A model generated the notes under the pieces. The model worked only from the letters and a program-made list of their open reading frames with translations. It ran no database searches and had not been told where the DNA came from. This document shows, piece after piece, positions 1 to 31,579 of a stretch of 34,097 bases of DNA. A program made the translations under genes and the position numbers. This DNA is from a virus (taxonomy: Duplodnaviria > Caudoviricetes): positions 1-34,097 of the IMG/VR virus record IMGVR_UViG_3300025888_000009. The stretch is one strand, 5' to 3'. Each line of letters opens with the position of its first letter. Within the stretch, counting starts at the first letter, position 1.

Positions 1-126
1 TTTGCACCTTGGAGGTTTGCATCTCGGAGGTCTGCACCTCGGAGGTTTGCATCTTGGAGGTATGCACCTTGGAGGTTTGCACCTTGGAGGTTTGCACCTC
101 GGAGGTTTGCATCTCGGAGGTTTGCA
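1..126. repeat. Terminal direct repeat (assembly overlap), identical to 33972-34097; indicates circular/complete genome
   Basis: Base-by-base identity of 1-126 with 33972-34097; the gene crossing the junction stays in frame. Confidence 0.9.
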
Positions 127-209
127 TCTCGGAGGTTTGCATCTCGGAGGTATGCATCTCGGAGGTTTGCACCTCGGAGGTCTGCACCTTGGAGGTATGC
201 ATCTTGGAT
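1..209. repeat. 15-bp tandem repeat (TGCA(C/T)CT(C/T)GGAGGT(T/C/A)) encoding pentapeptide repeats; ~16 units including 33944-33971
   Basis: Direct inspection; no spacers between units. Confidence 0.95.
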
Positions 210-302
210 AGCTTCTTTAATAGTATCCTTATTAGATTCCCACAAAACTGAACCATTTATCCAATGTACAATCTTGATTTTTACTTCTAATTTTTTACTC
301 AT
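1..302 (-). CDS. Pentapeptide-repeat protein with C-terminal DUF5758-like domain, N-terminal part (continues across the junction into 33971..33602)
   Basis: Manual translation from ATG at 302: MSKKLEVKIKIVHWINGSVLWESNKDTIKEAIQDAYLQGADLRG...; 15-bp repeats encode A(N/D/Y)L(Q/R)(G/D); start overlaps stop of upstream ORF. Missed by the ORF track. Confidence 0.9.
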   Translation of the reverse strand, partial: MSKKLEVKIKIVHWINGSVLWESNKDTIKEAIQDAYLQGADLRGANLRDAYLRDANLRDANLRDANLRGANLQGANLQGAYLQDANLRGADLRDANLQGA

Positions 303-498
303 CATCTTCATCTTTCATTATCATGACAATGTCAAATATAGTTGAGAAATCATAGTGGTCTGATATTGCTCGTATCATTTCTTCGGCTTTAAATTGAGGT
401 ACAATCTCTTCAAAGTCTATATTGTTTAAAGTTACTTCAATTTGATCGTCTTCTGCTATTGATTCGTACTTGTCTGTGGTTAATGTTATAGTTTCCAT
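295..498 (-). CDS. Hypothetical acidic protein, first gene of early promoter Pe1
   Basis: ORF track; ATG at 498 preceded by AAAAGGA RBS is a better start than TTG at 504. Confidence 0.75.
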   Translation of the reverse strand: METITLTTDKYESIAEDDQIEVTLNNIDFEEIVPQFKAEEMIRAISDHYDFSTIFDIVMIMKDEDDE

Positions 499-533
499 AT
501 TCAATTCCTTTTCTACTAGTTATTGATACTCTA

Positions 534-562
534 ATTATACCGAACGCTTACGCTAATGTCAA
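534..562 (-). promoter_or_regulatory. Sigma70-type early promoter Pe1 (TTGACA-17-TATAAT) with TAGCGTAAGCGT motif in spacer
   Basis: -35 at 557-562, -10 at 534-539, consensus hexamers and spacing. Confidence 0.9.
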
Positions 563-564
563 GC

Positions 565-759
565 CTAATCACGAGGGTCAGGTGACCAGCCGTCTAAATA
601 ATCCACAAACTGTTGGTCGTATTGTACTTCACCGTTTTTAACGGCTAGTAGATACTCTTCAAGCATCACAGGATCGCTCTCATAAGGTCGTTCAGCGTCC
701 GATTGCTCTTTCATGCGCTTAATATCTGTTTCATTAAATAATATTAGATGTTCGCACAT
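565..759 (-). CDS. Hypothetical protein
   Basis: ORF track; TAATG coupling with upstream gene. Confidence 0.6.
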   Translation of the reverse strand: MCEHLILFNETDIKRMKEQSDAERPYESDPVMLEEYLLAVKNGEVQYDQQFVDYLDGWSPDPRD

Positions 760-974
760 TATTTATTACCTTTCGTTATTATGCCTTCGTCGGCTAGTTT
801 GGATGTGTCATAAGTAGTAGTATGGTCAGCATGCCAATTAAACTCTTTATCACAATTACCGCATTCAGCAGTGCCATCTTCGTTATTATTCATTAGATAT
901 TCCCATGAATCTGATTGTTCAGTTTTACAGTAAGGGCATACCATTTCATCATTATGTATTAGTTCTATGTCCAT
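759..974 (-). CDS. Zinc-ribbon protein
   Basis: CPYC...CGNC motifs. Confidence 0.7.
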   Translation of the reverse strand: MDIELIHNDEMVCPYCKTEQSDSWEYLMNNNEDGTAECGNCDKEFNWHADHTTTYDTSKLADEGIITKGNK

Positions 975-1264
975 TATTTTTCTTCTTTCTTATTTAATAG
1001 TTCTGATATGGTATCTTTCAAATCTGTCAGTTTTATATGCACATGACCATCAATAATATACCCAGGTGTAGTGTCTATGACTTCATTAACAGTCTTTGAT
1101 ATTAGAGTGATTAGTTGTTGCTTGGCTTGTTCATGGTAAGTATCGTACCAATAATTCCTTTGTTTTTCGTTTTCCTCATCAGTCTCAAATGGTGAGCCAT
1201 ATATAGCACTGTCAAAACCACTTTGCATTATTTCTGTGACTAATTTATCTAGTTCTTTATCCAT
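974..1264 (-). CDS. Hypothetical protein
   Basis: ORF track; likely start ATG 1264 overlapping the upstream stop. Confidence 0.65.
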   Translation of the reverse strand: MDKELDKLVTEIMQSGFDSAIYGSPFETDEENEKQRNYWYDTYHEQAKQQLITLISKTVNEVIDTTPGYIIDGHVHIKLTDLKDTISELLNKKEEK

Positions 1265-1503
1265 TACAGTAACATCTCCGTTCCTGTCCATATTTGAACA
1301 TCAACTTGTTCTATACCTAATAGCCGTGCAGCTGCCAATCGGTGATTACCGTCAATAGCTACCCATTTAAGATTTATAGTTAGTGGCTCAAGTATGCCAT
1401 TTTGTTTAATACTCTCAAATAGTTCGTCAAACCTTTTGTTGCCTGGTTTCAAGCCAGCATCGGGTGGCCATTCTGCTTTTATAAGTTTAGTTGGTATTAT
1501 CAT
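1264..1503 (-). CDS. Stand-alone ParB/Srx N-terminal domain protein
   Basis: L.ESIKQNGILEPL...IDGNHRLAAARLLG motif. Confidence 0.85.
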   Translation of the reverse strand: MIIPTKLIKAEWPPDAGLKPGNKRFDELFESIKQNGILEPLTINLKWVAIDGNHRLAAARLLGIEQVDVQIWTGTEMLL

Positions 1504-1506
1504 TTA

Positions 1507-1677
1507 TTAATCCTCCAATTCATAAGTTTGTTCAACTATAAAGCATGAGCCAGTCCAAGGAGCTTTACAATTTTTGTATTCTACAGCTTCACTAAAAGTG
1601 TCAAAGAATAAACTAAACCCAAAATCCCTAGCTTTGCCTATATAATATAATCCCCATTGAGTTTTATATTTACTCAT
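1507..1677 (-). CDS. Small hypothetical protein (56 aa, MSKYKTQWGLYY...)
   Basis: Manual translation; fills the gap between flanking genes, GGAG RBS upstream. Confidence 0.55.
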   Translation of the reverse strand: MSKYKTQWGLYYIGKARDFGFSLFFDTFSEAVEYKNCKAPWTGSCFIVEQTYELED

Positions 1678-1944
1678 TTACTTCTCCTCTAACTTAGCTT
1701 TTTGAGATTGTAACTCTGAAATGCGACGATTAGCATCATCTGAATTTAGTGCGATATAACCACGTATTTTTTGGTCATCATATAAATATTTAATTTCTTC
1801 TATCCTAGCTTCAATCTCTCGTAGTGCTTGGTTTTGCATAACAAGTTTCCGTGCTTCATTCCATAAATCCATAGGTAAATGTGCATAAATAAAATTCGTT
1901 AATTCTTTACTAATTTCTTGGTCATTACTTAATGGTGTGTTCAC
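1678..1944 (-). CDS. Hypothetical coiled-coil protein
   Basis: ORF track, AAGGAG RBS. Confidence 0.65.
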   Translation of the reverse strand: MNTPLSNDQEISKELTNFIYAHLPMDLWNEARKLVMQNQALREIEARIEEIKYLYDDQKIRGYIALNSDDANRRISELQSQKAKLEEK

Positions 1945-1947
1945 AAC

Positions 1948-2412
1948 TTACTCCTTATCGTCCCGTAAAACTGCTTTTCTAGCTTCGTCCATAGCTTCTA
2001 ATAGGTTAAGTGTCAGTCCACAAACGGTAACATGCTTAATTTTACTAGATTCTGTATCATGCAACCATTCAAACATTAGCTTTTGGGCTTTAGCTACTAG
2101 CTCAGCAGTGGCTTCAGTACGGTAATAATTGTTTTGGTCATATCTAAGTGAGTCGTGTACGGTATTATTATCTATCGTGTAAATAATTACTTTATGACTA
2201 TCAATCCAATAATATGGGTTACCAACTTCTGCTCGCCAATGCTTAGGCTCTGGGGTGTAGGGTTCGATGAAATGTTGGTTGATAGCATCTTGTATTTTAC
2301 TATCAATAATAATATGTCCTTGTACACAATTATATAGTGAACCTTTACCACTAAATTTTAGTATCGTTCCTACTGGGGCGTTAATGAGTGGACGCAAAAC
2401 TTTATATTGCAT
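1948..2412 (-). CDS. Hypothetical phage protein (WRAE..YYWI motif)
   Basis: ORF track, GAGGAG RBS. Confidence 0.7.
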   Translation of the reverse strand: MQYKVLRPLINAPVGTILKFSGKGSLYNCVQGHIIIDSKIQDAINQHFIEPYTPEPKHWRAEVGNPYYWIDSHKVIIYTIDNNTVHDSLRYDQNNYYRTEATAELVAKAQKLMFEWLHDTESSKIKHVTVCGLTLNLLEAMDEARKAVLRDDKE

Positions 2413-2415
2413 TAT

Positions 2416-2565
2416 TTAAGTCTCCTCTAGTGAGTTATTAGGTTTGTTAATTACCGTAACGATGTAAGTTTTGCCTCCTGAGTTCCTAATCTCTGCGGTA
2501 TGGTCTGTACAATAAACTGCACTAAAATCTTTCAGTTCGCTCCATACAAATATTGGTATTTTCAT
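2416..2565 (-). CDS. Small hypothetical protein (49 aa)
   Basis: Manual translation, AAGGGGG RBS. Confidence 0.5.
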   Translation of the reverse strand: MKIPIFVWSELKDFSAVYCTDHTAEIRNSGGKTYIVTVINKPNNSLEET

Positions 2566-2758
2566 AATCCCCCTTTAAATAATAAAAACAATTAGCTCTA
2601 CAAATATATAAAAAAATGCTATAAATGCTACGCCTATTGTTACTGTCATCAATGCTGCCCAGCCTAAAATTGATAGTAACTTCATGCTAATACCACTATC
2701 AAAGTAAGTAATACTCCGAGTATAAAACCCATTATTGTGTCTGTGTTTGTGTCTGCTG

Positions 2759-2971
2759 TCATAACTGCCCTAACGCCTTTCTTATATTATTAACAAAATA
2801 TTCTGCTTGTTGTCGTTTAATGTCAAACACTTCTGCTATTTCAGAGTACGTACAACCACACTCACGCATCGTGTAAGCCACGATAGGCAAGTAATCCACT
2901 ACATTACCCATTATGTTATAAAGTTCTCGTAGGTGGGCTATATTAGCGTTGTTTTGTTTAGGTCTAGCCAT
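2759..2971 (-). CDS. Helix-turn-helix protein (sigma70 region 4/Cro-like)
   Basis: GCTYSEIAEVFDIKRQQAEY pattern. Confidence 0.75.
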   Translation of the reverse strand: MARPKQNNANIAHLRELYNIMGNVVDYLPIVAYTMRECGCTYSEIAEVFDIKRQQAEYFVNNIRKALGQL

Positions 2972-2973
2972 AA

Positions 2974-3246
2974 TTAAAACGGCTTTGACTGACCTGCAAT
3001 AATACTATCAAGTATAAATCGCATATCTTTTAGTGATTGGTCGTATGGCTCAAGCAAACGCCTGTATATTTCATGGTTTAGTTGTTGAGTGGTAAAGCTA
3101 GATAACTGAGCTTCTGGTGTATTTATCCACTCATCTAGTTCAGCCTGAGATTGTGCCTCATCAAAGCAACCATTATCATCAATACCTGTTTCATATAATC
3201 CGCTGTTATCATTTCTATCTTCCATATCTTCAAGTTGTTTTATCAT
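2974..3246 (-). CDS. Hypothetical protein
   Basis: ORF track. Confidence 0.6.
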   Translation of the reverse strand: MIKQLEDMEDRNDNSGLYETGIDDNGCFDEAQSQAELDEWINTPEAQLSSFTTQQLNHEIYRRLLEPYDQSLKDMRFILDSIIAGQSKPF

Positions 3247-3503
3247 CTTTAGATTCCTCCATTCTGGCCTCGGCTTCTAATTTAGTTATTTCAATTTCAC
3301 AGTATGATATTACGTTCATCAATGCTATTTTCTTTGATAGATTTTCTATTATGTTATAACTCATTACAACTCCGTTTCTAACACTCTTTTAATAGTTTTA
3401 TATAGTGTTCTGTCAATTCTTATACCAAAATACATGACCATTAGGATATCGTTTTAGTTTAACAGTACCAATATTTATATTTTCTACTGGTATACCTTTT
3501 AAG

Positions 3504-3701
3504 CTAGTCATTTAAATGTTCTCCTAGATATTTTATGGAATCGTCTGATATAACCATTTGCTGTAGATGGATATTCCATCCACCACGACCACAGCTACAT
3601 TTTGCAACCACTTTAACATATTCACGCCTATTTTTATCACGATAACTATTAGCTGTTAGTAGCATATCCATATCTTGGTCATATTTTGATGGTATATTCA
3701 T
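3504..3701 (-). CDS. Hypothetical protein
   Basis: ORF track; ATGA overlap with upstream gene. Confidence 0.6.
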   Translation of the reverse strand: MNIPSKYDQDMDMLLTANSYRDKNRREYVKVVAKCSCGRGGWNIHLQQMVISDDSIKYLGEHLND

Positions 3702-3850
3702 AGTTCTATTATCACTTTTTTAACAGTCAATATGCTTCCACCGAGTTCTTTAACGGCTATCGTCCAGTCTTTTACAGCCTTTTTAGTTTTTATAATCTTG
3801 GTCCTATAATTATCATTAGTCTCGTAAATAACTTTATATCCGTATCTCAT
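3698..3850 (-). CDS. Small basic protein (50 aa, MRYGYKVIYE...)
   Basis: Manual translation; strong AAGGAG RBS. Confidence 0.65.
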   Translation of the reverse strand: MRYGYKVIYETNDNYRTKIIKTKKAVKDWTIAVKELGGSILTVKKVIIEL

Positions 3851-3875
3851 ATTGTTACTCCTTATAGGTTAGTTT

Positions 3876-3996
3876 ATTAAGCGTATGGTGCTAGTAGCAA
3901 GCCCGACGATTGCCCCATCAGTTAGCTTTCAAATCGCAATATCTATCCAGCTGATTCATTTACTACCAGCACTACTACGTTTAATTGTTAATGTTA
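3876..3996 (-). ncRNA. Putative structured RNA cassette: boxA-like TAACATTAACAATT plus long closing stem; paralogous stem to 31581-31701
   Basis: GTGCTGGTAGTAA (3960-3972) pairs with TTGCTACTAGCAC (3888-3900) using G-U pairs on the minus strand; outer stem 3976-3985/3876-3885. Confidence 0.7.
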
Positions 3997-4098
3997 AACC
4001 GTTGCGATTGAGCTTATTGTGTTAGTGATTCGCTCTGCACTATTTTATCTTCGCTTTGGTCGATCAATTTCTTTTCTACTATTTGTTGATCTGTCTCT

Positions 4099-4127
4099 AT
4101 ACTAGCATAAGCGTAAGCGATAGTCAA
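4099..4127 (-). promoter_or_regulatory. Early promoter Pe2 (TTGACT-17-TAGTAT, extended TG) with spacer motif in inverted orientation
   Basis: -35 4122-4127, -10 4099-4104; spacer carries CGCTTACGCT; leader has AGTAGAAAAG. Confidence 0.8.
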
Positions 4128-4129
4128 TA

Positions 4130-4612
4130 CTATTTGCTAAAATTGCGATAAGATTTTTGCTTTACCACTGTTAATGTGTCTATACTACTCTCTTGGTTCA
4201 CTTTAGCTTCTAACATTTTCCACTTCATTTTCCAAACATCTGTTTCATAACCTTTTGCCTCATAGTATTCTAAATGACCGTCATTATGGGTAATAATAAA
4301 ATCTATAAAGTAATTAGTTATGTGTTTGCCATACGCCTGCAAGTCAATTTTTACTTGCTTTTGAACATCTTTTATATTGCCTGCTTTTAATCTTAAGTCT
4401 AAATCTTGAGCTACTTGGCTTTCAAATTTACTATCATAGTTATAGCCGTTATATGTGCTTTTTTTAGCTCCGTATTTGTTAAATGTTTTTCCAATCACAT
4501 GGTCGCAATTAGTACAGGTTAGTTTTCCACTTTTTAACATCAATCTTTTAGAATGGCACTTAGGGCATTCGGCTGACTTCATAGGATCGTTATTAGTTAT
4601 TTGTCTATACAT
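4130..4612 (-). CDS. DUF1064-family PD-(D/E)XK nuclease with N-terminal zinc ribbon
   Basis: NKYGAKKS...YDSKFE...YFIDF...EAKGYET motifs; CPKC/CTNC. Confidence 0.85.
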   Translation of the reverse strand: MYRQITNNDPMKSAECPKCHSKRLMLKSGKLTCTNCDHVIGKTFNKYGAKKSTYNGYNYDSKFESQVAQDLDLRLKAGNIKDVQKQVKIDLQAYGKHITNYFIDFIITHNDGHLEYYEAKGYETDVWKMKWKMLEAKVNQESSIDTLTVVKQKSYRNFSK

Positions 4613-4642
4613 AGTTTATCTAACTTAGCTGTTAGTTGTTTT

Positions 4643-4912
4643 TTAGTTTGTGTCACCGCCAACTTTTACATTATTATCTTGCCAAATTACAGTATCGTTT
4701 TTAATAAATCTAACTGATATACAATTATCTATTACGTGGGTTTCGATCTCTACATTGTCATAAGGTGGCTTCTTTTTTAGCTCCTCAAGTTTAATTTCTA
4801 ATAAAGATGGTATAGATTTTGCTATAATCACTACGCAAATTGCACTAATAACTATAATTATTGGTAATAATATTCCAAAAACTATCTGTATTGTTTGATA
4901 AAATGTTTCCAT
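4643..4912 (-). CDS. Hypothetical membrane-anchored protein
   Basis: N-terminal hydrophobic helix; AGGAG RBS. Confidence 0.65.
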   Translation of the reverse strand: METFYQTIQIVFGILLPIIIVISAICVVIIAKSIPSLLEIKLEELKKKPPYDNVEIETHVIDNCISVRFIKNDTVIWQDNNVKVGGDTN

Positions 4913-4943
4913 TACAATCTCCTAACTTAACTGTTCTTTAATT

Positions 4944-5411
4944 TTATTTAATCTGTATATTCTGATTTTCAATTAGCATGACACCGTCAATAATTTCGCC
5001 AACTTTTAGTGCTTTACCAAGGCTAACCTTGTCGGCTGTAACAGTAGTAACAGATTTTTTATACTCATCTGGCAACGTATCCATATCTATTACTTCGACG
5101 CTGGTACTTTTACGGTAAGTAATATTTACTTTAATCGTTCCAAATTTACTGCCATGTAATGAAGTATCAAGATAATTCTTTAAACTTTCGGCTTTAGTCT
5201 TAGCTTGCTTTTCTTTTAATGCAAACGCATCTTTTTCATTCTTGTACTGGTCAGCTTCCGATAACAGGTTTTTATACCACAATGCCACGCTCTCAAGCTT
5301 CTGGTCACGTTCCATTTGCAATTCGTCAAACTTGTCAGTGTCGATTATTTCGCCTGTCTCTTGGTCTATACAGTTTAATAGTTGTTCTTTTATTTCGTAT
5401 AAGTTAGCCAT
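4944..5411 (-). CDS. Siphovirus gp157-family protein
   Basis: MANLYEI...IDQETGEI...YRKSTSVEV...LPDEY...GVMLIENQNIQIK pattern. Confidence 0.9.
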   Translation of the reverse strand: MANLYEIKEQLLNCIDQETGEIIDTDKFDELQMERDQKLESVALWYKNLLSEADQYKNEKDAFALKEKQAKTKAESLKNYLDTSLHGSKFGTIKVNITYRKSTSVEVIDMDTLPDEYKKSVTTVTADKVSLGKALKVGEIIDGVMLIENQNIQIK

Positions 5412-5413
5412 TA

Positions 5414-6121
5414 TTACATATCCTTATTGAACACTAGTTCAGTTAATTTTGCTATCATATCTATTGCTTGTTGGCCATCAGTTATAGTATCAATTTTAGC
5501 GTTTACAATACGATCTTCATAGCCTAATTCTTTACCAAGTCTCTTAATAGTGTCTACGTCGTTCTGTGCTGGCTTATAAGCTTTTACGGTAGGTTTCTTT
5601 GGCTCTGGCGCAATATATTTGCCTAGCGCGAAAACTATATTGCCGCTCTTTAAGTTAATTATCTCTAACTCGTTAATCTCTTTATTCTCATTATATCCAA
5701 TTTTAGTAACACTGAATTTATCATATGTGCCTAATTTACCAGTTTTAGGGTTCTTATATGAGCTATACTTATCAGCACTAATCCAAGTAAATGGGGCTGT
5801 ATAAAGCTCACGCCCTATGCCAAAATTAAACCCTGCACGTTTGAAAGCGTCCGAGGCTTGACCTTTTTCTTTTTCAGCTTGACTCTCTACACCAACATCT
5901 TGTCGGCTTATCCATTCTTTAATCTCATCATCCCATATTGAGATAGTGCAAAACAGATTACCGTTTATAAGTTCGTGACTTCTTTTCCATTTTAGTTCAG
6001 ACTCATCAAGTATATTCATATCAACACGAGCGTCTTTATACAAAAGTAATGTAGCACCTTTCTCGTTTATAGTACCAATACGTACTTCAATTTCATTCTC
6101 TTTTAATAATCTGATATTCAT
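5414..6121 (-). CDS. Sak/Rad52-like single-strand annealing protein
   Basis: LLLYKDARVDMNILDE...EKEKGQASDAFKRAGFNFGIGRELY motif. Confidence 0.85.
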   Translation of the reverse strand: MNIRLLKENEIEVRIGTINEKGATLLLYKDARVDMNILDESELKWKRSHELINGNLFCTISIWDDEIKEWISRQDVGVESQAEKEKGQASDAFKRAGFNFGIGRELYTAPFTWISADKYSSYKNPKTGKLGTYDKFSVTKIGYNENKEINELEIINLKSGNIVFALGKYIAPEPKKPTVKAYKPAQNDVDTIKRLGKELGYEDRIVNAKIDTITDGQQAIDMIAKLTELVFNKDM

Positions 6122-6279
6122 TATTTTAATTCCTCTAATATTTTATTGGTATATTCTTCAGCAATTGCATCTGTCTCTGTATTAGTACTTTCTAACCTTG
6201 CTATTGCAAAAGATAACATAGCTTGAGTGACTAAACTTTTTACAAGTATTTTACTAAGTTCTTTGGTAATATCTTCCAT
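6121..6279 (-). CDS. Small hypothetical protein (52 aa, MEDITKELSK...)
   Basis: Manual translation; TAATG coupling to Sak gene. Confidence 0.6.
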   Translation of the reverse strand: MEDITKELSKILVKSLVTQAMLSFAIARLESTNTETDAIAEEYTNKILEELK

Positions 6280-6280
6280 A

Positions 6281-6367
6281 TTATACCTGCGGATAGATTG
6301 TGTAATCTATTCCATTAACTGTACCTAAATAGTACTCGCTCTTAATTTGTTTAATAGTTATTGTCAT
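6281..6367 (-). CDS. 28-aa peptide, first gene of promoter Pe3
   Basis: MTITIKQIKSEYYLGTVNGIDYTIYPQV*; GAGGA RBS. Confidence 0.6.
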   Translation of the reverse strand: MTITIKQIKSEYYLGTVNGIDYTIYPQV

Positions 6368-6400
6368 ATAATCCTCTTTTCTACTTTGGTTTATGTGTCT

Positions 6401-6429
6401 ATCTTACCACACGCTTACGCTAAAATCAA
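6401..6429 (-). promoter_or_regulatory. Early promoter Pe3 (TTGATT-17-TAAGAT, extended TG) with TAGCGTAAGCGT in spacer
   Basis: Same spacer motif at the same offset as Pe1; leader has AGTAGAAAAG. Confidence 0.85.
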
Positions 6430-6435
6430 TACTAA

Positions 6436-6464
6436 TTGTAACTTTAATATAGTTTTAGTATAAT
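6436..6464 (+). promoter_or_regulatory. Divergent promoter (TTGTAA-17-TATAAT) for the antisense sRNA
   Basis: -35 6436-6441, -10 6459-6464, back-to-back with Pe3. Confidence 0.8.
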
Positions 6465-6470
6465 ACAGAT

Positions 6471-6568
6471 AGATGGTTAGTTTTTTACTCTCGCCTACGG
6501 GCTTTAGTCAATTCACTTTTCTACTAGGCTAACTATCACAGATTGAGACTCGAAAGAGTTTCTTTTTG
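6471..6568 (+). ncRNA. Putative trans-acting antisense sRNA against early-transcript leaders
   Basis: Promoter, stem 6472-6482/6527-6537, C(UACG)G hairpin, loop TCAATTCACTTTTCTACTA, terminator; no ORF. Confidence 0.75.
6545..6568 (+). terminator. Intrinsic terminator GAGACTC-GAAA-GAGTTTC-TTTTT
   Basis: GNRA-capped hairpin plus U tract. Confidence 0.85.
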
Positions 6569-6764
6569 TTTATCCCCTATGTAATTACTACTGTTATTTT
6601 GATATATCCCCCTATAATGGGAGGTACATGTAGTGATAAGTAACCTATACCATTTTAATTAAACCTATGTTATATTGAGGGTATTATAAATAAGTATTAT
6701 CAGTAATGGTATTGTTTAATTATAAGCACCTTATACCCCCTATATAGTTAATTTAACTAGTAAT

Positions 6765-6833
6765 AATAACGCCGTATTTGTGTTGATTACCCTCCACTCC
6801 ACACAGTTACACTACAAGGCGTTATTTTTATTT
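6765..6833 (+). ncRNA. Hairpin RNA/terminator with C-rich (anti-SD-like) loop
   Basis: AATAACGCC/GGCGTTATT stem, inner TGTGT/ACACA, loop TGATTACCCTCCACTCC, T-rich tail. Confidence 0.5.
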
Positions 6834-6846
6834 GGGATTTTTCTTG

Positions 6847-6875
6847 TTGCAAATAATGTTAGTAAAGCTTATAAT
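6847..6875 (+). promoter_or_regulatory. Promoter TTGCAA-17-TATAAT
   Basis: -35 6847-6852, -10 6870-6875. Confidence 0.8.
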
Positions 6876-6928
6876 TATAGCTAACTGATTGACGTATTAA
6901 AGTACTTAAATCAGTAGTATAAGTAGTT

Positions 6929-6956
6929 AAGAAAAAAACCTCTTGCGAGGCTTCTT
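6929..6956. terminator. Terminator hairpin (CCTC-TTGC-GAGG) with U7 tract on minus strand and weaker tract on plus strand
   Basis: AAGAAAAAAACCTC TTGC GAGGCTTCTT between convergent promoters. Confidence 0.65.
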
Positions 6957-6980
6957 CGATTAACGTATTAAAGTATCTTA

Positions 6981-7009
6981 ATTATAACGTACTTAATAAT
7001 CTTATGCAA
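6981..7009 (-). promoter_or_regulatory. Convergent promoter TTGCAT-17-TATAAT
   Basis: -35 7004-7009, -10 6981-6986. Confidence 0.8.
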
Positions 7010-7150
7010 TAGTTATGGGGAGTCGCTGATCTATGCCAGTAAACGTAACTTTAAAACAGTTTACAAAATAGACTCAACGTTTTAGGCTATCGTAAAGCTT
7101 GCTTTATACTGATGAAAGTAAAACACAGCGTACATTAATAATTTGCATCA

Positions 7151-7498
7151 ATTAAAGGTAGTTGAGAGACGATAGAGCATAATCTCAAAGGAGAACACAT
7201 ATGGCTAAACATATAAGCAAGAGTGTCATAGAAGATATAGCTTACGAGATAAAAAGAGTTGGTTTAATTACTAAAGCCTACGAAGATGAAACAGTTAGTG
7301 AAGAAATGTCTTTAAATTTTGGTAGTATTGATGATTTTAATCTTAGTGCTACTCGTACATTAGAGTGGTTAACTGCTAATATCGCAGATATACTAGCTGA
7401 ACATGACCCAACATTCGATTATGATAGATTTAACAAACAAGCATCATTTAATATAGAAATATAATAATAAAATCTATCGTCTCTCACATGCCTTTAAT
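7151..7498 (+). repeat. Inverted repeat enclosing ORF 7201-7464 (10 bp + 2x2 loop + 14 bp), preceded by boxA-like GTACATTAATAATT (7130-7143)
   Basis: TGAGAGACGATAGA 7163-7176 / TCTATCGTCTCTCA 7473-7486; ATTAAAGGTA 7151-7160 / TGCCTTTAAT 7489-7498. Confidence 0.85.
7201..7464 (+). CDS. Hypothetical protein (one of only two plus-strand genes)
   Basis: AAGGAG RBS; 87 aa; C-terminal ..IADILAEHDPTFDYDRF.. Confidence 0.85.
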   Translation: MAKHISKSVIEDIAYEIKRVGLITKAYEDETVSEEMSLNFGSIDDFNLSATRTLEWLTANIADILAEHDPTFDYDRFNKQASFNIEI

Positions 7499-7529
7499 AA
7501 GATAATATAATTAATAACAACCAATAAAA

Positions 7530-7608
7530 GGGGAGTTAATAATAAAAGCATTGTCTGATGTAACTAACTAAGCAACCTAATCAGGTATAGCTTAAATATT
7601 TACTCCCC
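7530..7608 (+). ncRNA. Long imperfect hairpin, putative ncRNA
   Basis: GGGGAGT.AATA/TATT.ACTCCCC outer stem; AAGC..TGTCTGAT/ATCAGGTA..GCTT inner stem. Confidence 0.5.
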
Positions 7609-7678
7609 GCTGTTCTACAGTTAAAAAGAAGGGATAATTTATAGTACCAAAAAATAGTAACTAAGTTATAATAATCAC

Positions 7679-7888
7679 ATGACTGACGAAGAATACAATA
7701 AATATAATAAGCCTAAAAAGAAGTACACATTCGAGGAGCATAGAAACAGCGAAGATCGTAAATGGTCACTTGATCGCCAGCGCAAACACGATGAAGAAGG
7801 TAAAAAGATAATTAGAGCGATAAGTAACAAACATGCAACTATTTACCAAATCAAACAACAGGAGAAGCTTAGAAATGCTGCTAATTAG
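7679..7888 (+). CDS. Small charged protein, probably leaderless mRNA
   Basis: TATAAT at 7667-7672 lies 6 nt before ATG; no SD. Confidence 0.7.
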   Translation: MTDEEYNKYNKPKKKYTFEEHRNSEDRKWSLDRQRKHDEEGKKIIRAISNKHATIYQIKQQEKLRNAAN

Positions 7889-7950
7889 TGTCTAACTCAT
7901 CGCCTGTTGAGTTTTAGCTACGAATTTGAATAAGTACTAGTCTAAACAAA

Positions 7951-7986
7951 TAAAACGCCACAGCAAGTACTGTGGCTTCTTGTTTT
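7951..7986. terminator. Bidirectional terminator GCCACAG-CAAGTA-CTGTGGC between convergent transcription units
   Basis: Hairpin 7957-7976 flanked by A-rich and T-rich tracts. Confidence 0.7.
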
Positions 7987-8048
7987 ATCTACTGCTCATT
8001 CGGGCAAAGTAATTATATCATTTACATCACCGCAAAGTGATTATATTA

Positions 8049-8420
8049 TTATTCTTTTATTCTATGCTCTGAAAATTCTATCAAGTCAAACTTTATTTCA
8101 AAGTCCCACTGTTCTGCGTCGTAGTTAAATATTGCATAAGCTGTAAACATTCCAGTAGACCACTGTGAGTTATCGTAGACATCACCAAGGTTTTTTATGA
8201 TGTCTTTGCCTATAACTATAAATAGCTCATTTATTGTATCCTGTAATTTATATACATTGGGGATTCTATCACCATAATCGTATCCTGTTGCTTGGAATAT
8301 AACAGAAGCCTTAACAGCCGCTGCCATAGTGTATTCGTCTAGATACAGACTATTCCAACCTAATTTTTCGCATATTGGTTCTAATTGTTCCACAATCTTA
8401 TCGTGAACATCTAATGACAT
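8049..8420 (-). CDS. Hypothetical protein flanked by an inverted repeat
   Basis: AGGAG RBS; ORF track. Confidence 0.75.
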   Translation of the reverse strand: MSLDVHDKIVEQLEPICEKLGWNSLYLDEYTMAAAVKASVIFQATGYDYGDRIPNVYKLQDTINELFIVIGKDIIKNLGDVYDNSQWSTGMFTAYAIFNYDAEQWDFEIKFDLIEFSEHRIKE

Positions 8421-8482
8421 ATATGATTCTCCTATCTATATGACTTTGCGGTTATGGGAGATATTTTTATCTCTTACCGATA

Positions 8483-8938
8483 TTATAGCATATGTGAAAT
8501 TGCGTTATACTCTTGCTTCAGCTGTATAATTTTACTTTCTTGTATCTCTTTATATTCAGGGTGTCTAGCACTACCTATTCGTATCAGTCCGCCTATCGCA
8601 TATTGCCTCATTATCTCGTCTAGGGCTTGAACAGGTTTTAATAATTCTGGTGGACCGTACTTACGATGAAAGTAGTCGTGAACATCGGCTGGTTGTTGTG
8701 CTTGAATAGCATCAAGGTTACGGAATGTTGTATAAATTGCTAGCGAACTCATTGTTGATTTGGTAAAGGCATAATGGTGGTTCGTTTCATTATAGTATTT
8801 GCCCTCTAAATGAGTCTCTGGCAGGTCTAGCTCCTCAAATGCTAGACTTATGCCATATTTATCTTTTGGGGCTGCTGGGAGGCACGAGAACGTGTCGTAG
8901 TGAGTTGGCTTTCTACGTCTTTTACCATGCTTTGCCAC
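8483..8938 (-). CDS. Hypothetical protein (His-rich motifs, possible nuclease-like fold)
   Basis: GTG start with GAGG RBS; NHHY...HDYFH. Confidence 0.65.
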   Translation of the reverse strand: MAKHGKRRRKPTHYDTFSCLPAAPKDKYGISLAFEELDLPETHLEGKYYNETNHHYAFTKSTMSSLAIYTTFRNLDAIQAQQPADVHDYFHRKYGPPELLKPVQALDEIMRQYAIGGLIRIGSARHPEYKEIQESKIIQLKQEYNAISHML

Positions 8939-8941
8939 GGC

Positions 8942-9148
8942 TTATTCCTCAAGGCTAATGTAATATTCAACAATATCTTCTAAACGGTCTGTATATTCTT
9001 GCTCCATCATTAAATCATAGTCTGTGACATATCCTTCGGCGTTACATTTATCTTCATTTTCGGAATAGAACGCTAGAAACGTTTCAGTATCTAGCGTATC
9101 AATCGTATTGTGATGGACACGCTCGGTATTTGTTAGTTTTTCACTCAT
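8942..9148 (-). CDS. Hypothetical acidic protein
   Basis: ORF track; ATGA overlap. Confidence 0.65.
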   Translation of the reverse strand: MSEKLTNTERVHHNTIDTLDTETFLAFYSENEDKCNAEGYVTDYDLMMEQEYTDRLEDIVEYYISLEE

Positions 9149-9830: not shown

Positions 9831-10493
9831 TTATCCGACTATATATAAGCCGTTAGTTAATTTTTTTGCTTCTTTGTTTGAGTTTGCTGCCTTATTAAAC
9901 CAAACAGCAGCCTCGTTACCACTGTAAAAAGTGACTAGAACATCTTGCCAGCTTCTACCGATTTGATATTTAAACTCACTCTTTGACAGTGACCTACCAG
10001 TCATGTTTTTAAATGTTTGTGATAGTATGTCATAATCATACGTCGTGTCTTCTACCATTGATTTCTCCTCTATTACTTTAGTTCCCTCTACGTCCTCAGT
10101 CCAACCTAAAAATGTTAATGGGTTAGCTTGCGAATAATACTTAATAAGAGCGTCTAATGAGCTGTGATGGACTGCCGTGTTTGAGTTTGATGCACTTGCA
10201 GAATATACGCTACCGTCGCTCATACGCAATGCTACGTGTCCAGCTGGCTCATATGCGAGGGTAAACCAAACAGGCACATCGCAGTTAGGCGGAAATAGGT
10301 AATTAGTATGTTTATATGGACTTGCGTTAAACGAATCGATAGCAGTTCTATATACAGGCTTAGCCCCAAAAGATTTACTAACAAATTCTAAACACCATCC
10401 TGGCCAACAATTCACCATATATGATTTGTTAGTAGAATTGTCATAGTGACTGTATATCACATTTGGATTTGGAGTTATTTTTTGCTTAAACAT
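9831..10493 (-). CDS. Endolysin, CHAP/NlpC-like Cys-His peptidase
   Basis: GWCLEFV (Cys) and AGHVAL (His) motifs; lysis-module position. Confidence 0.75.
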   Translation of the reverse strand: MFKQKITPNPNVIYSHYDNSTNKSYMVNCWPGWCLEFVSKSFGAKPVYRTAIDSFNASPYKHTNYLFPPNCDVPVWFTLAYEPAGHVALRMSDGSVYSASASNSNTAVHHSSLDALIKYYSQANPLTFLGWTEDVEGTKVIEEKSMVEDTTYDYDILSQTFKNMTGRSLSKSEFKYQIGRSWQDVLVTFYSGNEAAVWFNKAANSNKEAKKLTNGLYIVG

Positions 10494-20996: not shown

Positions 20997-21533
20997 TCAC
21001 AAATAATTACTCATATTAAGCTCTGATTTTAATTGCTTCAAAGGTATTACTTCGTCAACTCTAGCTGTAATGTCTTTTGCTAGGTAATAACTTTCATAAC
21101 CAGCCTTAGTAATAGTAATAACAAATGGGTCATATCTAGTAATTGTTTGCACTCCAGCCGTATCATAAGTTGTTTCTCTATAGTAGGCTTCTGTTTCAAC
21201 CACTCCACTAGCATCAGTCAAGTCATTAAATAACTCTGTGCCAACACTATTTTTAATAATAACTCTGGCGTTTTCAAGTGGGTTTTTGTTTAAATCTTCA
21301 ACTGTGTATTTGAAAGTCTTAATGTCTCTTATCCAGCTATCTGTCGAAGTTCCTGAGTTCCATTTAGACCTAGCGTCAGGAGTGGAATCAACAAGCGATA
21401 CTTGCCAATCATCACCTAGTGTTAATACTTCACCGCTAGATGCACGACCACCACGATAATTAACTAATCTATACCTTGAGCCTGTAGCTGTTTGCAAAGA
21501 ACGTGAGACATTATCAACAAACACGTCTATCAA
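20997..21533 (-). CDS. Beta-rich virion accessory protein fragment with carboxypeptidase-regulatory-like (Ig-like) domain
   Basis: NPLENARVII...TDASG...ITITKAGYE; frame open upstream to 21593 without a good start. Confidence 0.6.
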   Translation of the reverse strand: MIDVFVDNVSRSLQTATGSRYRLVNYRGGRASSGEVLTLGDDWQVSLVDSTPDARSKWNSGTSTDSWIRDIKTFKYTVEDLNKNPLENARVIIKNSVGTELFNDLTDASGVVETEAYYRETTYDTAGVQTITRYDPFVITITKAGYESYYLAKDITARVDEVIPLKQLKSELNMSNYL

Positions 21534-22248: not shown

Positions 22249-24344
22249 TTTACAATCTCCCATGTTGCACCACATTGGCAGTTCGGGTGACTGTGAGCTA
22301 TATCCATGTCAACAAAGTCATTATTCAATACTCCGCCATCCTCGCCTTGGATAACGCCGTCTTTAGGTACGAATGGGGTGTTGACTGAAACAACAGTTCC
22401 GTCCATCGCTCGACAAAACTCACAAGGATTACCACCGTAAGTATTCCATATTTTGTTTATTGCATAACCTGTCTCACCTTGTATATTCTCCATAGCAAAT
22501 AGCGAACCATTACCACCAGCTCGAACAGTTTCAGTTCTTGCTATTCTAACTGTTCGCCACTCTTCTAAATTAGGAATAGTCTTTAGTTCTTTTTTTAGTT
22601 GGCTTGCGCTCAAACCATTTGCGTTGCCATTATCTAAGACTTTGCGGATAGCGTCTTTAGTGTCTGAGGCGTAACTCTTACCTACATTAGTTAGATATGA
22701 TTTGTAGTTGTTAATTTCAGCATCGGTTAAACTAAATTCGCTTAACATATCAGCATTTAAGCCGGCATCTAAGATTAGTTGTATGCCTTCTTCGTATTGG
22801 ATAGTGCCATCGGCTATAAGTAAGGCTGTGATAGGTATTAAAGCGTCATCAACAAAGGTTTCAAGGTCGTTATTGTCGTAATCGCCTTGTTCGTTTTTTG
22901 TTTCATCATCGACTTCATCAACAGCCTTATCAACTTGAGTTTGCATAAACCTAGCAGCTGCTTTTTTAATCTCGTTATATTCGACAGTCTCAACTACTGC
23001 TTTTGGGTTTTGGCAGCCGCAACCTCCATCATGAAGTTGATTGACAAAAGTCTCAATTTGCTTAGGGTCAGGGCTTGCGTTTACTTCACCACCTTCATCG
23101 ACATCACCCTCATCAATCTCTTTTATGGTGGCAGTTTCCACCTTCTTAAGTTTTTTATAACTTTCAGGTAATTCAAAAGCATCAACTACACTCTCTAACG
23201 AGTAGCCGTTAAGATCAACCATGTTAGTAATAATAGATTGGTTGAGTACTTTAGTCTCTGATTCAACTTTGACAGCATCAGCTACGGCAGGGATAGCATA
23301 GTCAAATACAATTGCATAACCTAGGCCATTAGTAATTCGATTTAACTCATGAGTGATTGTAGTGTAAATTTCAATTGCCATTGGACGGACTGCACGTTTA
23401 GCAAATCCAGCCTCAGATACTTGAGCCGTCGCATAAGTTGAAGCGTCATCTACTCCCTTAACAACTTGTGAGACACCAAATGCCATGTCAGTACGTTTGT
23501 TAGTTTGCTCGAATAAGTTTTTAAAGTCAATGTCTTTATTAGATTGTGCGAATGGTATCCATTCAATCTGGGCGTGGGCTTCTTTGCCTGTGTTCTTGTC
23601 AATTGGTCGAGGTGTATAAACCACGTTACCGTTCTTGCCAGCTCCTCTATGAGCTTTTTGCATTTCAGTAACAGTATCTTCATAGTCTGTTTTTTTAGCG
23701 GTCGTAATAACGAATGTACCGGCAGGGATTGCACCATTCTCAAAGAATCCAGCTTGAAAAGCAGCGATGTAGTCATCTAGTTTAGCCCAACGCTCGGCAG
23801 CTTCTCGTGATGAATAACCTCCATATAAGTTATCAGGGTTTACGCCACCAGGAATGACAATCACTTCATCTTCGGTAAATGAACTTGAGCCTAATGTATA
23901 GATAGTCTTTCCTAAGACAGTTGAGACGCTTGGGTGTTCTAAGAATGTATAACCAGCTATGTTATTAGGTGTGATATCACCAAATGGTACGGCTTTACTG
24001 CCGTTTTTGCGCCAGACAAGTAGATAAGTTTTACGATGTGTGAGTTTAGAGACGGCTAGTTTCTTAAAGAATGAAGCGGAACTATCTATTTTATTAGGGT
24101 GATATAGTGCATCGACAGCCATTGATTTGACAGTTTTACCAGTCTTATCAATCGCATAAGGTTTAATCTGCATAAATTCATCAGATATTGCTCTAACACT
24201 TGGGTGAATAGTGGCGTATGAATCAGATGTTAGCTTGCCATGTAGATGGTTAGGACTCCATGTGGCTAATGAATCACGTCCAGTATATAAATTGTTGACA
24301 GTGAGGTTTCTAAATATGTTTTTTATTGCGTTAAAAGGTTTCAA
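22245..24344 (-). CDS. Portal protein fused to Mu gpF/SPP1 gp7-like head morphogenesis domain
   Basis: FFENGAIPAG, AFGVSQVVKG (HK97-type portal); RIARTETVRA...CEFC..MDG...HPNCQC (Mu F). Confidence 0.9.
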   Translation of the reverse strand: MKPFNAIKNIFRNLTVNNLYTGRDSLATWSPNHLHGKLTSDSYATIHPSVRAISDEFMQIKPYAIDKTGKTVKSMAVDALYHPNKIDSSASFFKKLAVSKLTHRKTYLLVWRKNGSKAVPFGDITPNNIAGYTFLEHPSVSTVLGKTIYTLGSSSFTEDEVIVIPGGVNPDNLYGGYSSREAAERWAKLDDYIAAFQAGFFENGAIPAGTFVITTAKKTDYEDTVTEMQKAHRGAGKNGNVVYTPRPIDKNTGKEAHAQIEWIPFAQSNKDIDFKNLFEQTNKRTDMAFGVSQVVKGVDDASTYATAQVSEAGFAKRAVRPMAIEIYTTITHELNRITNGLGYAIVFDYAIPAVADAVKVESETKVLNQSIITNMVDLNGYSLESVVDAFELPESYKKLKKVETATIKEIDEGDVDEGGEVNASPDPKQIETFVNQLHDGGCGCQNPKAVVETVEYNEIKKAAARFMQTQVDKAVDEVDDETKNEQGDYDNNDLETFVDDALIPITALLIADGTIQYEEGIQLILDAGLNADMLSEFSLTDAEINNYKSYLTNVGKSYASDTKDAIRKVLDNGNANGLSASQLKKELKTIPNLEEWRTVRIARTETVRAGGNGSLFAMENIQGETGYAINKIWNTYGGNPCEFCRAMDGTVVSVNTPFVPKDGVIQGEDGGVLNNDFVDMDIAHSHPNCQCGATWEIVK

Positions 24345-24399: not shown

Positions 24400-25608
24400 C
24401 TAGCGTATACCCCAATACTCGACAGGTTTATATCCCTCTTTATAAGTTATAAAGTATCTTATTGCGTCCATTGCATGATTATAGGCATCAATCGGAACAT
24501 TAAGGGCTTTGTCTTCTCTATCAAACTTCCAAGCATAGTTGTAATATTCTTCCTCTATGTTGTGAGAATTAGCAGTGTAATAAATCTTAACACCCTGTAG
24601 CCTTTGAATACCGTTATTAATACTGTCTTTACCTTTAACGCAAGGAATGATTGATATACCATGATCTGATATTTCTTGGATACTTTTTGGCTCAGCACTA
24701 TCACCAACTGTTAACTCATCACCTAATTTATCAATATTAAGTTGTAGCAATTCGGCAATTGAACTATTACTTAGTTTTCTTTGGTAGCATATCTCATCAA
24801 CTATATACGAATTGTTCCACTTATAGATATTAATAATAGATGTAGGGTCATTAGTATAGCCAAAGTCTAACCCATTGCCTAAGTATTGGGCTTCTTTTGG
24901 AACTGTCTCTATCTTTTCCCAATTAGTGTATACCTTACCAGATTTACTGGCTGGCTCACCTAACCATTTGTGTTTAAATATCTGTGGTCGGTTTTCTCTG
25001 TCACTTTCCATCTCATCAATTAACGATCTGGACATCCAACCATACTTTAAAGCAACATCGTAGTTTAGATTAAGTAATAGAGTATGTGGTCGTCCATCAA
25101 TAACTAATCGTTTGTGAATAGCGTCTTTTTCAGTCAGCCGGTTATAAGTATAGAATAATTGCGATCCCTCTTTGCGTACTGTTGGAGTTAATATCTCAAG
25201 GCTAGATTCTGTTATAGTCTGAGCCTCTTCTACCCAAGCCTCTGTCATACCCTCGATAGATTTAACACTCTGAATATTATTGTGTAAACCTCTAAATATA
25301 AAGTCATAACCTGTCTTAGTATTGATAATAGAATCATTTGTTATTCTAAAGTTAGGTAAGTGACAATCCTCAATAACATCTTTTAACAATGAATACGAAC
25401 TATCGGTAATGGAGTTCTGATATTCACGAAAGCAACCACAACGGCCACGTTTATTGGATGCTCTGATTAAAAGTATTCTAGCAACAGTACCAGATTTAAG
25501 AGAGCAACGACCACCATATATAGCAGCCTCACGCCAATCAGTATCAAACAACCTAGCATATTCGCTAGGTATTAATACATCATTCTTGTTTTTTTGGTCG
25601 TTCATCAA
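24400..25608 (-). CDS. terL: Terminase large subunit, PBSX family
   Basis: YGGRCSLKS Walker A variant, WVEEAQ Walker B, GLDFGYTNDPT, DSAEPKSI, NHAMDAIRY. Confidence 0.95.
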   Translation of the reverse strand: MMNDQKNKNDVLIPSEYARLFDTDWREAAIYGGRCSLKSGTVARILLIRASNKRGRCGCFREYQNSITDSSYSLLKDVIEDCHLPNFRITNDSIINTKTGYDFIFRGLHNNIQSVKSIEGMTEAWVEEAQTITESSLEILTPTVRKEGSQLFYTYNRLTEKDAIHKRLVIDGRPHTLLLNLNYDVALKYGWMSRSLIDEMESDRENRPQIFKHKWLGEPASKSGKVYTNWEKIETVPKEAQYLGNGLDFGYTNDPTSIINIYKWNNSYIVDEICYQRKLSNSSIAELLQLNIDKLGDELTVGDSAEPKSIQEISDHGISIIPCVKGKDSINNGIQRLQGVKIYYTANSHNIEEEYYNYAWKFDREDKALNVPIDAYNHAMDAIRYFITYKEGYKPVEYWGIR

Positions 25609-30668: not shown

Positions 30669-30992
30669 TCACTTGCAGATTTTAACAGATGCTACAATTG
30701 GCTCAACTGCTGGCTCTTGTGGAGTCTGTGATGGTGCAGGTTGCTCGTGTTGCTTAACAAAGGAATCAATACACTGTTTCTCTGTTTCTTGTGTCATAGA
30801 GGCTTTCATGCACTCTGGTACTGCTGGGTCTGAATTATCGCAACCGTCAACTGGATTACTCCATCTATATGGATACTGACAATTACTATGATCAAATGGC
30901 TTACTTGTTTCAGCTAGTGAAGTATTCAGTGCTACTAACGACCAGCCAGAGATGGCAATTACAAATAGTATAATGATTGATATTCTTTTCAT
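30669..30992 (-). CDS. Secreted/membrane-anchored Cys-containing protein with Pro-rich tail
   Basis: Signal-peptide-like N-terminus; GGAG RBS. Confidence 0.7.
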   Translation of the reverse strand: MKRISIIILFVIAISGWSLVALNTSLAETSKPFDHSNCQYPYRWSNPVDGCDNSDPAVPECMKASMTQETEKQCIDSFVKQHEQPAPSQTPQEPAVEPIVASVKICK

Positions 30993-31368: not shown

Positions 31369-31579
31369 AGTTATACATGGGTAAGGTCTAGTAGTAGAGT
31401 TGGACTTGAACCAACGACCTAAGCACCAATAAAAATCCTTTTGAGATTTTCTAATGCCACATTCTAACCAGCTGAACTATCCACTACTAGCTTTGGATAG
31501 CAATTGGGCTTCAGCATTTGCTTCTTTAGTGCCGCTTATTAAATTGCTATCCTTATCCATGTATAACTTTTAAATGTGC
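31369..31579 (-). ncRNA. Structured RNA cassette: boxA-like GCACATTTAAAA plus 18-bp closing stem enclosing a hairpin domain and the tRNA-like element
   Basis: 31551-31568 pairs with 31369-31386 (one mismatch); GGATAGCAATT/AATTGCTATCC 31495-31505/31542-31552. Confidence 0.75.
31388..31490 (-). tRNA. tRNA-like element with canonical D and T arms, elongated anticodon arm, 11-bp acceptor stem and no CCA; isotype unassignable
   Basis: CTAGTAGTGGA TA GTTC AGCTGGTTA GAAT G [39-nt arm] AGGTC GTTGG TTCAAGT CCAAC TCTACTACTAG. Confidence 0.75.

Follow-up and report, generated by a model that had tools for sequence, protein, structure and literature searches.

The DNA analysed here, referred to below as the window, is a tailed-phage genome of 34,097 bases with a completeness rating of 100%; since one ORF spans both genome ends, it is probably circularly permuted. 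Nearly all of its genes lie on the minus strand. Besides the early operon described below, these include terminase, portal and tail genes, a capsid protein fused to ClpP, an endolysin, enzymes that modify sugars, and small early ORFs. On the plus strand, a short island (6436-7980) carries a candidate RNA gene together with two small ORFs. None of the cultured phages is close to the window, and GenBank phages included no close relative; two records that are 100% identical to it (L176, L392) were excluded from our counts. The island begins with a compact unit at 6436-6568:

6436-6464 (+): predicted small-RNA promoter, TTGTAA-17-TATAAT, scoring 10/12
6470-6568 (+): predicted 99-nt small RNA with closing stem, inner hairpin, antisense loop and terminator
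6472-6482 with 6527-6537 (+): closing stem of 11 bp, three of them G-U
6493-6502 (+): inner C(UACG)G tetraloop hairpin
6508-6527 (+): antisense (seed) loop, complementary to three leaders
6545-6568 (+): intrinsic terminator with a 7-bp stem, a GAAA loop and a U run

The -35 box of this promoter is 6 bp from that of the minus-strand early promoter Pe3, and the RNA would start 75 bp from the Pe3 start, with transcription directed away from Pe3. The transcript contains no ORF with a start codon and Shine-Dalgarno (SD) sequence. Its predicted fold reaches -28.7 kcal/mol (z -4.36; none of 200 shuffles was equally stable), and seed positions 6509-6522 are mostly unpaired, with probabilities of 0.54-1.00. 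Sigma-70-like sites occur in 1-9000 at chance frequency (39 found, 39.8 expected), so that the promoter calls rest on a motif shared between promoter spacers, on geometry and on relatives. An earlier, preliminary description of this DNA had proposed a promoter back-to-back with Pe3, an ORF-less RNA of ~100 nt with these stems and a GAAA-capped terminator, and a leader copy within the RNA that is not itself a fourth leader. We recovered every one of these signals at the same coordinates, and found no minus-strand promoter upstream of the leader copy.

Beyond the RNA gene, the island shows further features. Three copies of a GGGGTATAA-like motif occupy an AT-rich gap just past the RNA terminator (6570-6750); the motif also recurs past the terminator in G003, G004, G026, G030, G034 and G039, and is found again at 24413 and 24436, between terminase and portal. 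It is possible that it represents an origin, a packaging site or a late-promoter element. Convergent promoter-like sites at 6847 (plus) and 7009 (minus), with a hairpin and U run between them near 6935-6960, possibly mark another small RNA or the leader of the downstream gene for an 87-aa protein. This ORF (7201-7464) has 18 homologs but belongs to no family, and lies inside an inverted repeat (7134-7515, plus strand) whose 43-nt arms are 74% complementary; by eye, complementary arms also flank the homologs in L175, L177, L178 and L179. The mRNA may thus close into a large loop or form a processed cassette. The protein itself is modelled as four helices (pLDDT 89.7) and gave no match in Pfam or PHROG, none in PDB or BFVD at E 0.001, and only unnamed clusters in the Atlas. 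It had been considered as a repressor and was set aside, being present in only two (G004, L177) of the 11 other element-bearing records.

On the minus strand, the early promoters and their leaders are arranged as follows:

6401-6429 (-): Pe3, the first early promoter, TTGATT-17-TAAGAT with TG; spacer motif at 6411-6423
6363-6385 (-): target 3, with a 10-bp core at 6376-6385; pairing -13.5 kcal/mol
6121-4130 (-): early-operon genes for an Erf/Rad52-like annealing protein, Gp157 and a resolvase
4099-4127 (-): Pe2 promoter, TTGACT-17-TAGTAT with TG; spacer motif at 4109-4120, in reversed orientation
4062-4091 (-): Pe2 5' hairpin with a 6-bp stem and an 18-nt loop, holding target 2 (4064-4081; -11.4 kcal/mol)
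3851-4061 (-): remaining long, partly structured Pe2 leader, preceding the first SD-led ATG (3850)
534-562 (-): Pe1 promoter, TTGACA-17-TATAAT, scoring 12/12; spacer motif at 544-556
501-519 (-): target 1, 19 bp with one bulge, -17.2 kcal/mol, covering the SD of a 67-aa ORF (ATG 498)

Pe3 scores only 8/12 and was missed by the sigma-70-like promoter scan. Its target lies beside and over the SD of a 28-aa ORF (ATG 6367) that heads the Erf/Gp157/resolvase operon, target 1 is located in a weak 5' hairpin, and the first SD-led ATG behind Pe2 comes after 244 nt. Pairing with the RNA includes 12 consecutive strict Watson-Crick pairs at Pe1, and comprises 11 + 7 bp at Pe2 and 10 bp plus an extension at Pe3. 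The shared 10-mer occurs four times against 0.18 expected from base composition, for a motif chosen post hoc. When the loop was compared with 6,812 segments covering both strands of the whole genome, its own complement excluded, the Pe1, Pe2 and Pe3 leaders ranked 1, 2 and 4. With the RNA taken in full length and accessibility penalised, the mean for start regions of the window was -5.2 kcal/mol, although some of them reached -10 to -15 kcal/mol, and the late start of ORF 8942-9148 (minus) attained -15.2 kcal/mol, the third-best value among 70 start regions and leaders and above those of Pe2 and Pe3. Its partner is the inner 5' portion of the RNA, and it may be a chance match or a fourth target reached through a second seed. 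Intrinsic terminators were not detected in the three leaders. The pairings first described for Pe1 (19 bp with one bulge, over the SD) and Pe3 (10 bp next to the SD) were thus reproduced, the latter with an extension and an overlap with the SD itself. Pe2 also pairs, by 11 + 7 rather than the 11 + 6 bp originally given, yet its site is followed by no start codon and is no ribosome-binding site. Of the three leaders expected to rank top, Pe3 came fourth across the genome, and the late start outranked both Pe2 and Pe3 among start regions and leaders.

The second half of the Pe2 leader (3860-3990, minus) folds into a 13-bp stem around two hairpins. Similar structures bounded by CTAGTAG/CTACTAG recur in L179 and flank a tRNA-like element of the window (31391-31486, minus; Rfam RF00005, 42.5 bits) whose anticodon arm is enlarged.

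Relatives were gathered through the Erf protein, a tail protein, the 87-aa plus-strand protein and the capsid, which has about 340 relatives, and whole records were fetched. Ten of them (G001, G002, G003, G004, G005, G026, G030, G038, G039, L177) carry the unit, always at the head of the first early operon. The layout is divergent in G001, G002, G003, G004, G026, G030, G039 and L177, with a gap between -35 boxes of -4 to 29 bp in nine divergent cases besides the window; in G005 and G038 the RNA gene stands in tandem just upstream of the early operon. Its orientation is therefore free, as expected of an RNA acting in trans. Long forms share the plan of the window RNA, i.e. closing stem, inner hairpin, seed and terminator; in short forms (G004, G005, L177, G038) the seed is folded into one stem or a small hairpin. 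Fold z-scores range from -2.6 to -7.2 in 11 of 12 RNAs and amount to -1.6 in that of G038. In every relative with the unit, the leader copy is transcribed as its complement and lies in an open loop of a folded, terminated RNA.

A more distant phage, G045, was found among the control loci and has a hairpin-seed-terminator version with two matching leaders. Only the Erf gene is common to it and the window among five proteins compared, and it possesses HTH_3 genes but no integrase. At the locus in question (G045 35777-35890; L055 1810-1990), a hairpin, an anti-leader linker and a terminator diverge from an early promoter, the second leader being at G045 1087. As for records in which the unit was not seen, G027 and G036 have the promoter motif but no clear RNA, and none was evident in L178; L179 and many fragments end short of the operon head. 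Broader scans added little: an exact leader-pattern scan of viral contigs gave 93 single matches, none in relatives as defined by protein search; a promoter-motif pattern scan of these contigs returned G001 twice along with six unrelated or chance loci; and an orientation-free scan found G045 and several GC-rich chance pairs but missed G002, G005, G038 and G039. Scanning GTDB with the terminase yielded zero matches, and with the Erf alignment 80 loci in Bacteroides, Lachnospiraceae, Clostridium and similar taxa, which served as controls. Four peat metagenome runs, all of DNA, were considered, one of them being possibly the source; contigs from the other three left the RNA gene uncovered, hence close variants were not obtained.

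The strongest argument for base pairing comes from the joint change of seeds and leaders. By blastn, only the RNAs of G030 and G039 are alignable among 11, and of 28 compared pairs in these two, 3 are compensatory. We therefore asked how well each RNA pairs with its own and with foreign leaders, using whole RNAs with an accessibility penalty and leaders selected by the spacer motif, poor pairers included. In a first cross-test (9 RNAs, 23 leaders) the own RNA was best for 18 of 23 leaders, and the true assignment was the best of 362,880. Enlarging the set to 11 RNAs and 29 leaders (G030 omitted as a near twin of G039) gave 20 of 29, a result equalled by 0 of 200,000 label shuffles. Values of -10 kcal/mol or below were reached by 20 of 29 own pairs but by only 6 of 290 foreign ones, and mean pairing was -10.6 kcal/mol with own leaders against -4.6 kcal/mol with foreign leaders having similar SD cores. 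Nine leaders did not prefer their own RNA, and several are weak pairers, such as G001 33486 and 22329, G004 6292 and G038 33845. Selection by eye, with the pairing known, of five members (G002, G005, G038, G039 and an initial look at four more) inflates these figures.

Because several RNAs had first been spotted by eye with pairing in view, we ran a pairing-blind detector whose sole requirements are a pair of divergent promoters and a folded RNA ending in a U run. Pairing with the divergent leader at or below -10 kcal/mol was found for 7 of 21 candidates from 44 family records (a set leaving aside G033 and G035, with 37% capsid identity and likely other hosts), as compared to 3 of 100 from 251 control loci (Fisher p 1.6e-4). 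One of the three control matches is G045; the remaining two, L195 and L219, have no SD-type leader. Upstream of the paired block, across the promoter, identity falls to 27% (196 of 728 positions), so that the match is confined to the seed and does not stem from promoter duplication. Within fixed flanks there was no excess of G-U over A-C oppositions (23 vs 31, p 0.89), whereas at single breaks inside helices G-U prevailed (15 vs 4, p 0.01), a weak count as it was defined afterwards. The compensatory change of loop and leaders that the preliminary description had suggested looking for in related phages thus appears as a preference for the own RNA across molecules that mostly cannot be aligned, and its central proposal, an RNA acting in trans on several early leaders, is supported by covariation across phages and by a match that stops before the promoter.

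Not every target is a ribosome-binding site. Promoters lacking a start codon behind the target, as in Pe2, occur once each in G001, G002, G004, G026, G039 and G030, the last one cut by the contig end. In these Pe2-type leaders the target is held within a 5'-terminal hairpin. Over 30 nt, such hairpins had z-scores of -2.3 or lower in 6 of 7 cases, whereas leaders with a start codon had z-scores of -2 or lower in 4 of 19 (p 0.012 with G030 and G039 counted once); the Pe2 hairpin of the window needs 32 nt and is visible in longer folds rather than in the 30-nt fold. The duplex predicted at these leaders occupies the loop and 3' arm and frees the 5' arm. As the Pe2 site is no ribosome-binding site, ribosome blocking cannot be the whole mechanism. 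Whether or not a start codon follows, the target core of almost every leader starts near transcript position 10, and the RNA therefore seems aimed at the 5' ends of transcripts and not at ribosome sites alone. The Pe2-type arrangement suggests that decay, attenuation or a decoy RNA is involved, and the candidate processes at Pe2 include opening of the 5' hairpin, refolding of the leader, block of a standby site, and titration of the RNA by a decoy.

Taken together, we consider it highly probable that the RNA pairs with and silences the early leaders. Its open loop would recognise about +10 to +28 of the three predicted early transcripts, while the stems would stabilise the RNA and hold the seed open. 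Host sigma-70 polymerase would synthesise it from a promoter that, in a cI-like position, might compete with Pe3. At Pe1 and Pe3 the duplex would cover the SD of the first ORF and keep ribosomes off, with a polar effect on the rest of the operon. Pairing at Pe2 (and Pe1) would start in the loop of the 5' hairpin, where the seed would displace the 5' arm; this could leave the transcript open to decay or change the fold of the leader.

A second, DNA-level control likely exists alongside. The spacer motif common to the three early promoters is a 6-bp tandem repeat used in either orientation; each relative has its own version of it, shared by 2-5 promoters per phage where enough sequence is available, and most leaders behind such promoters carry a target of the RNA of the same phage. 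The sharing of the motif implies that a DNA-binding regulator probably exists. A protein with a weak helix-turn-helix in the early operon (2759-2971; Sigma70_r4_2, E 5e-4) is a candidate to bind it; host LexA was also considered, and the 87-aa plus-strand protein is a poor candidate. In line with the preliminary description, which had seen no recognisable CI or integrase, our searches of the window for HTH_3, S24 and integrase domains were negative. Besides, no antirepressor family was found among its 68 ORFs, nor was a replication initiator identified.

Some relatives are temperate: a tyrosine integrase is encoded in 8 of 37 records and also in G046. The integrase-bearing relatives searched had no HTH_3 or S24 domain, and the detector found no divergent unit in them. 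Six relatives (G008, G044, G047; G012, G022, G046), of which the integrase search covered G008, G012, G022 and G046, have instead a short RNA led by a strong promoter that is complementary over 16-24 nt, through its 5' part, to a hairpin preceding the early genes; where the distance was measured, it was 2-3.4 kb. Examples lie at G022 21454-21520 and 23450-23500, and at G008 590-660 and 30830-30880. In G047 both the RNA and the hairpin copy have changed. Alternatively, these pairs may represent an inverted repeat at the DNA level.

That the antisense action also serves immunity or dormancy, with the RNA as master repressor, is a view we hold tentatively, at just short of even confidence. As each phage has its own seed, an incoming phage of the same kind would be silenced in a cell that holds the RNA, and a resident genome could be kept quiet without integration. 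Dormancy is favoured by the specificity of the seed in each phage, by the location resembling that of cI, and by the parallel seen in temperate relatives that lack CI.

A lytic timer is a real, if somewhat doubtful, possibility. Here, the RNA would be made from entry onwards, accumulate, and shut the early operons in favour of late genes, with the Pe2 hairpin setting the threshold. Integrase, resolvase and ParA as persistence functions were absent from the window and from the element-bearing records searched, so that no means of being maintained through cell division is apparent; a ParB-like fragment of 79 aa is the only partition-like item in the window. This favours a timer, as does the near-consensus host promoter of the RNA, which should fire at once, and the weak helix-turn-helix protein could bind the spacer motif and thereby free the RNA promoter. 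However, seeds that differ completely between related phages suit self-recognition better, a similar pairing of RNA and target occurs in temperate relatives that lack CI, and no separate late promoter was identified in the window, so that silencing Pe1 could also cut late genes. Going beyond the master-repressor reading, one might envisage an all-RNA lysis-dormancy switch in which the small RNA takes the part of CI, the Pe2 leader, with its target in a 5' hairpin loop and no start codon, serves as anti-repressor decoy and overlapping promoters provide mutual exclusion. A clan of Patescibacteria phages, both integrating and non-integrating, would then have exchanged protein repressors for reprogrammable seeds, each of which would define an immunity group; we regard this full scheme as rather unlikely.

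Readings without antisense silencing fare worse. If the shared sequence were a protein-binding site, be it a DNA operator or a RegA-like RNA site, the copy at 6508-6527 would be an operator or decoy. A regulator probably does exist, given the second motif in the spacers of the three promoters, and the negative G-U test in fixed flanks is compatible with a protein site. Yet the copy is transcribed as the complement in an open loop, where a decoy RNA would have to carry the sense strand; the match puts up with bulges and G-U pairs; and the specificity of the protein would have to change in each phage, which makes this reading improbable. Still harder to credit is a general anti-SD RNA that lowers host or global translation and matches the leaders incidentally: seeds are indeed pyrimidine-rich and overlap SD-like purine runs, with the stronger start regions pairing as noted above, but the distance between own and foreign leaders, the weak average over window starts and the Pe2-type sites devoid of start codons speak against it. 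A decayed promoter/leader duplicate or chance match devoid of function, to which the AT-rich region and the chance frequency of promoter-like sites might lend themselves, is barely conceivable in view of the low upstream identity, the stable fold (z -4.4) and the recurrence at the same place in ten relatives.

How, then, does the preferred antisense repressor relate to known systems? Rfam gave no match in the window RNA, and the c4 model (RF01695) none in the window at E up to 5 or in 19 small sources around the RNAs at E up to 10. Together with the absence of the defining features of both, this agrees with the initial impression that the RNA does not resemble P4 CI or P1/P7 C4 RNA. Citron and Schuster reportedly found in 1990 that c4 represses in trans through single-stranded loops, with immunity specificity arising from matched changes in RNA and target. 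The c4 RNA is cut from the operon that it controls, ahead of the antirepressor gene, and silences the antirepressor under a protein repressor. Like it, the RNAs described here present antisense segments in loops that change together with their targets, as judged by computed pairing; unlike c4, the window RNA has its own promoter and terminator on the opposite strand and would act on two to four operons apart from each other, in a genome that shows no evident protein repressor.

Lambda cI/cro provides a likeness of layout, in that the repressor gene stands back to back with the first early promoter and controls several early promoters; it differs in that the repressor here would be an RNA acting after initiation, HTH_3 and S24 domains being absent. 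The plasmid countertranscript RNAs (CopA, RNA I, Inc RNA) initiate pairing by their loop with the loop of a target hairpin and fall into specificity groups by loop sequence, but are encoded in cis and address one replication gene, whereas the window RNA would act in trans on a genome in which we identified no replication initiator. By contrast, it shows the features of trans-encoded base-pairing sRNAs: a stand-alone gene with predicted promoter and terminator but no ORF, and an accessible seed that is predicted to pair, briefly and imperfectly, with a number of distant mRNAs.

According to the part of PMC4825925 that treats it, the P4 CI RNA confers immunity where other phages use a repressor protein, pairs with seqA and seqC to cause premature termination, and is processed from the regulated leader, with targets on either side. 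The window RNA might likewise stand in for a repressor protein and act on leader RNA, but it comes from a gene of its own, as far as 6 kb away from targets that lie on transcripts of the other strand. P4 CI is the sole immunity determinant; in the window, the lack of HTH_3 and S24 would fit such a role, and the shared spacer motif points to an additional protein. P22 sar and lambda OOP and aQ are presented in PMC12197685 as small RNAs of phages by which the translation of a switch gene is blocked or its transcript sent into decay; they are cis-encoded and fully complementary to one target, whereas the window RNA overlaps no target and pairs partially, over 10-19 bp, with several. The literature we searched, which lay mostly outside subscription journals, contained no description of this RNA family, and a member might already figure, with no function assigned, among the candidate RNAs in the supplements of PMC10690425. 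Most likely, it is an undescribed family of multi-target, trans-acting antisense RNAs that would function like c4 and P4 CI but belongs to neither.

The host is likely a Saccharibacterium, as indicated indirectly by one link through the relative G031. This phage, with 46% capsid identity to the window, carries an integrase, and the 90% cluster of this integrase includes a protein labelled Candidatus Nanogingivalaceae, which we take to be a family of Saccharibacteria. The window endolysin (9831-10493, minus) has its closest cultured relatives in Arthrobacter phages (44% over the catalytic part), a likeness that would be notable if the host were a Saccharibacterium living on Actinobacteria.

RNA-based repression in phages is known from few enterobacterial cases, P1/P7 c4 and P4 CI, in which the RNA is cut from the controlled operon. 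In the present phages, which have no recognisable repressor protein, a stand-alone RNA in the position of cI appears to control every early operon directly. As its architecture is kept and its sequence discarded, Rfam and alignment screens miss such a family, and the phages would be filed as having no regulatory module. The about a dozen natural RNA-leader pairs, largely orthogonal in computation, could potentially serve as compact gene switches. If the host inference holds, they would also offer an account of how phages of tiny episymbionts set the timing of their cycle or halt it, and how they distinguish self from non-self.
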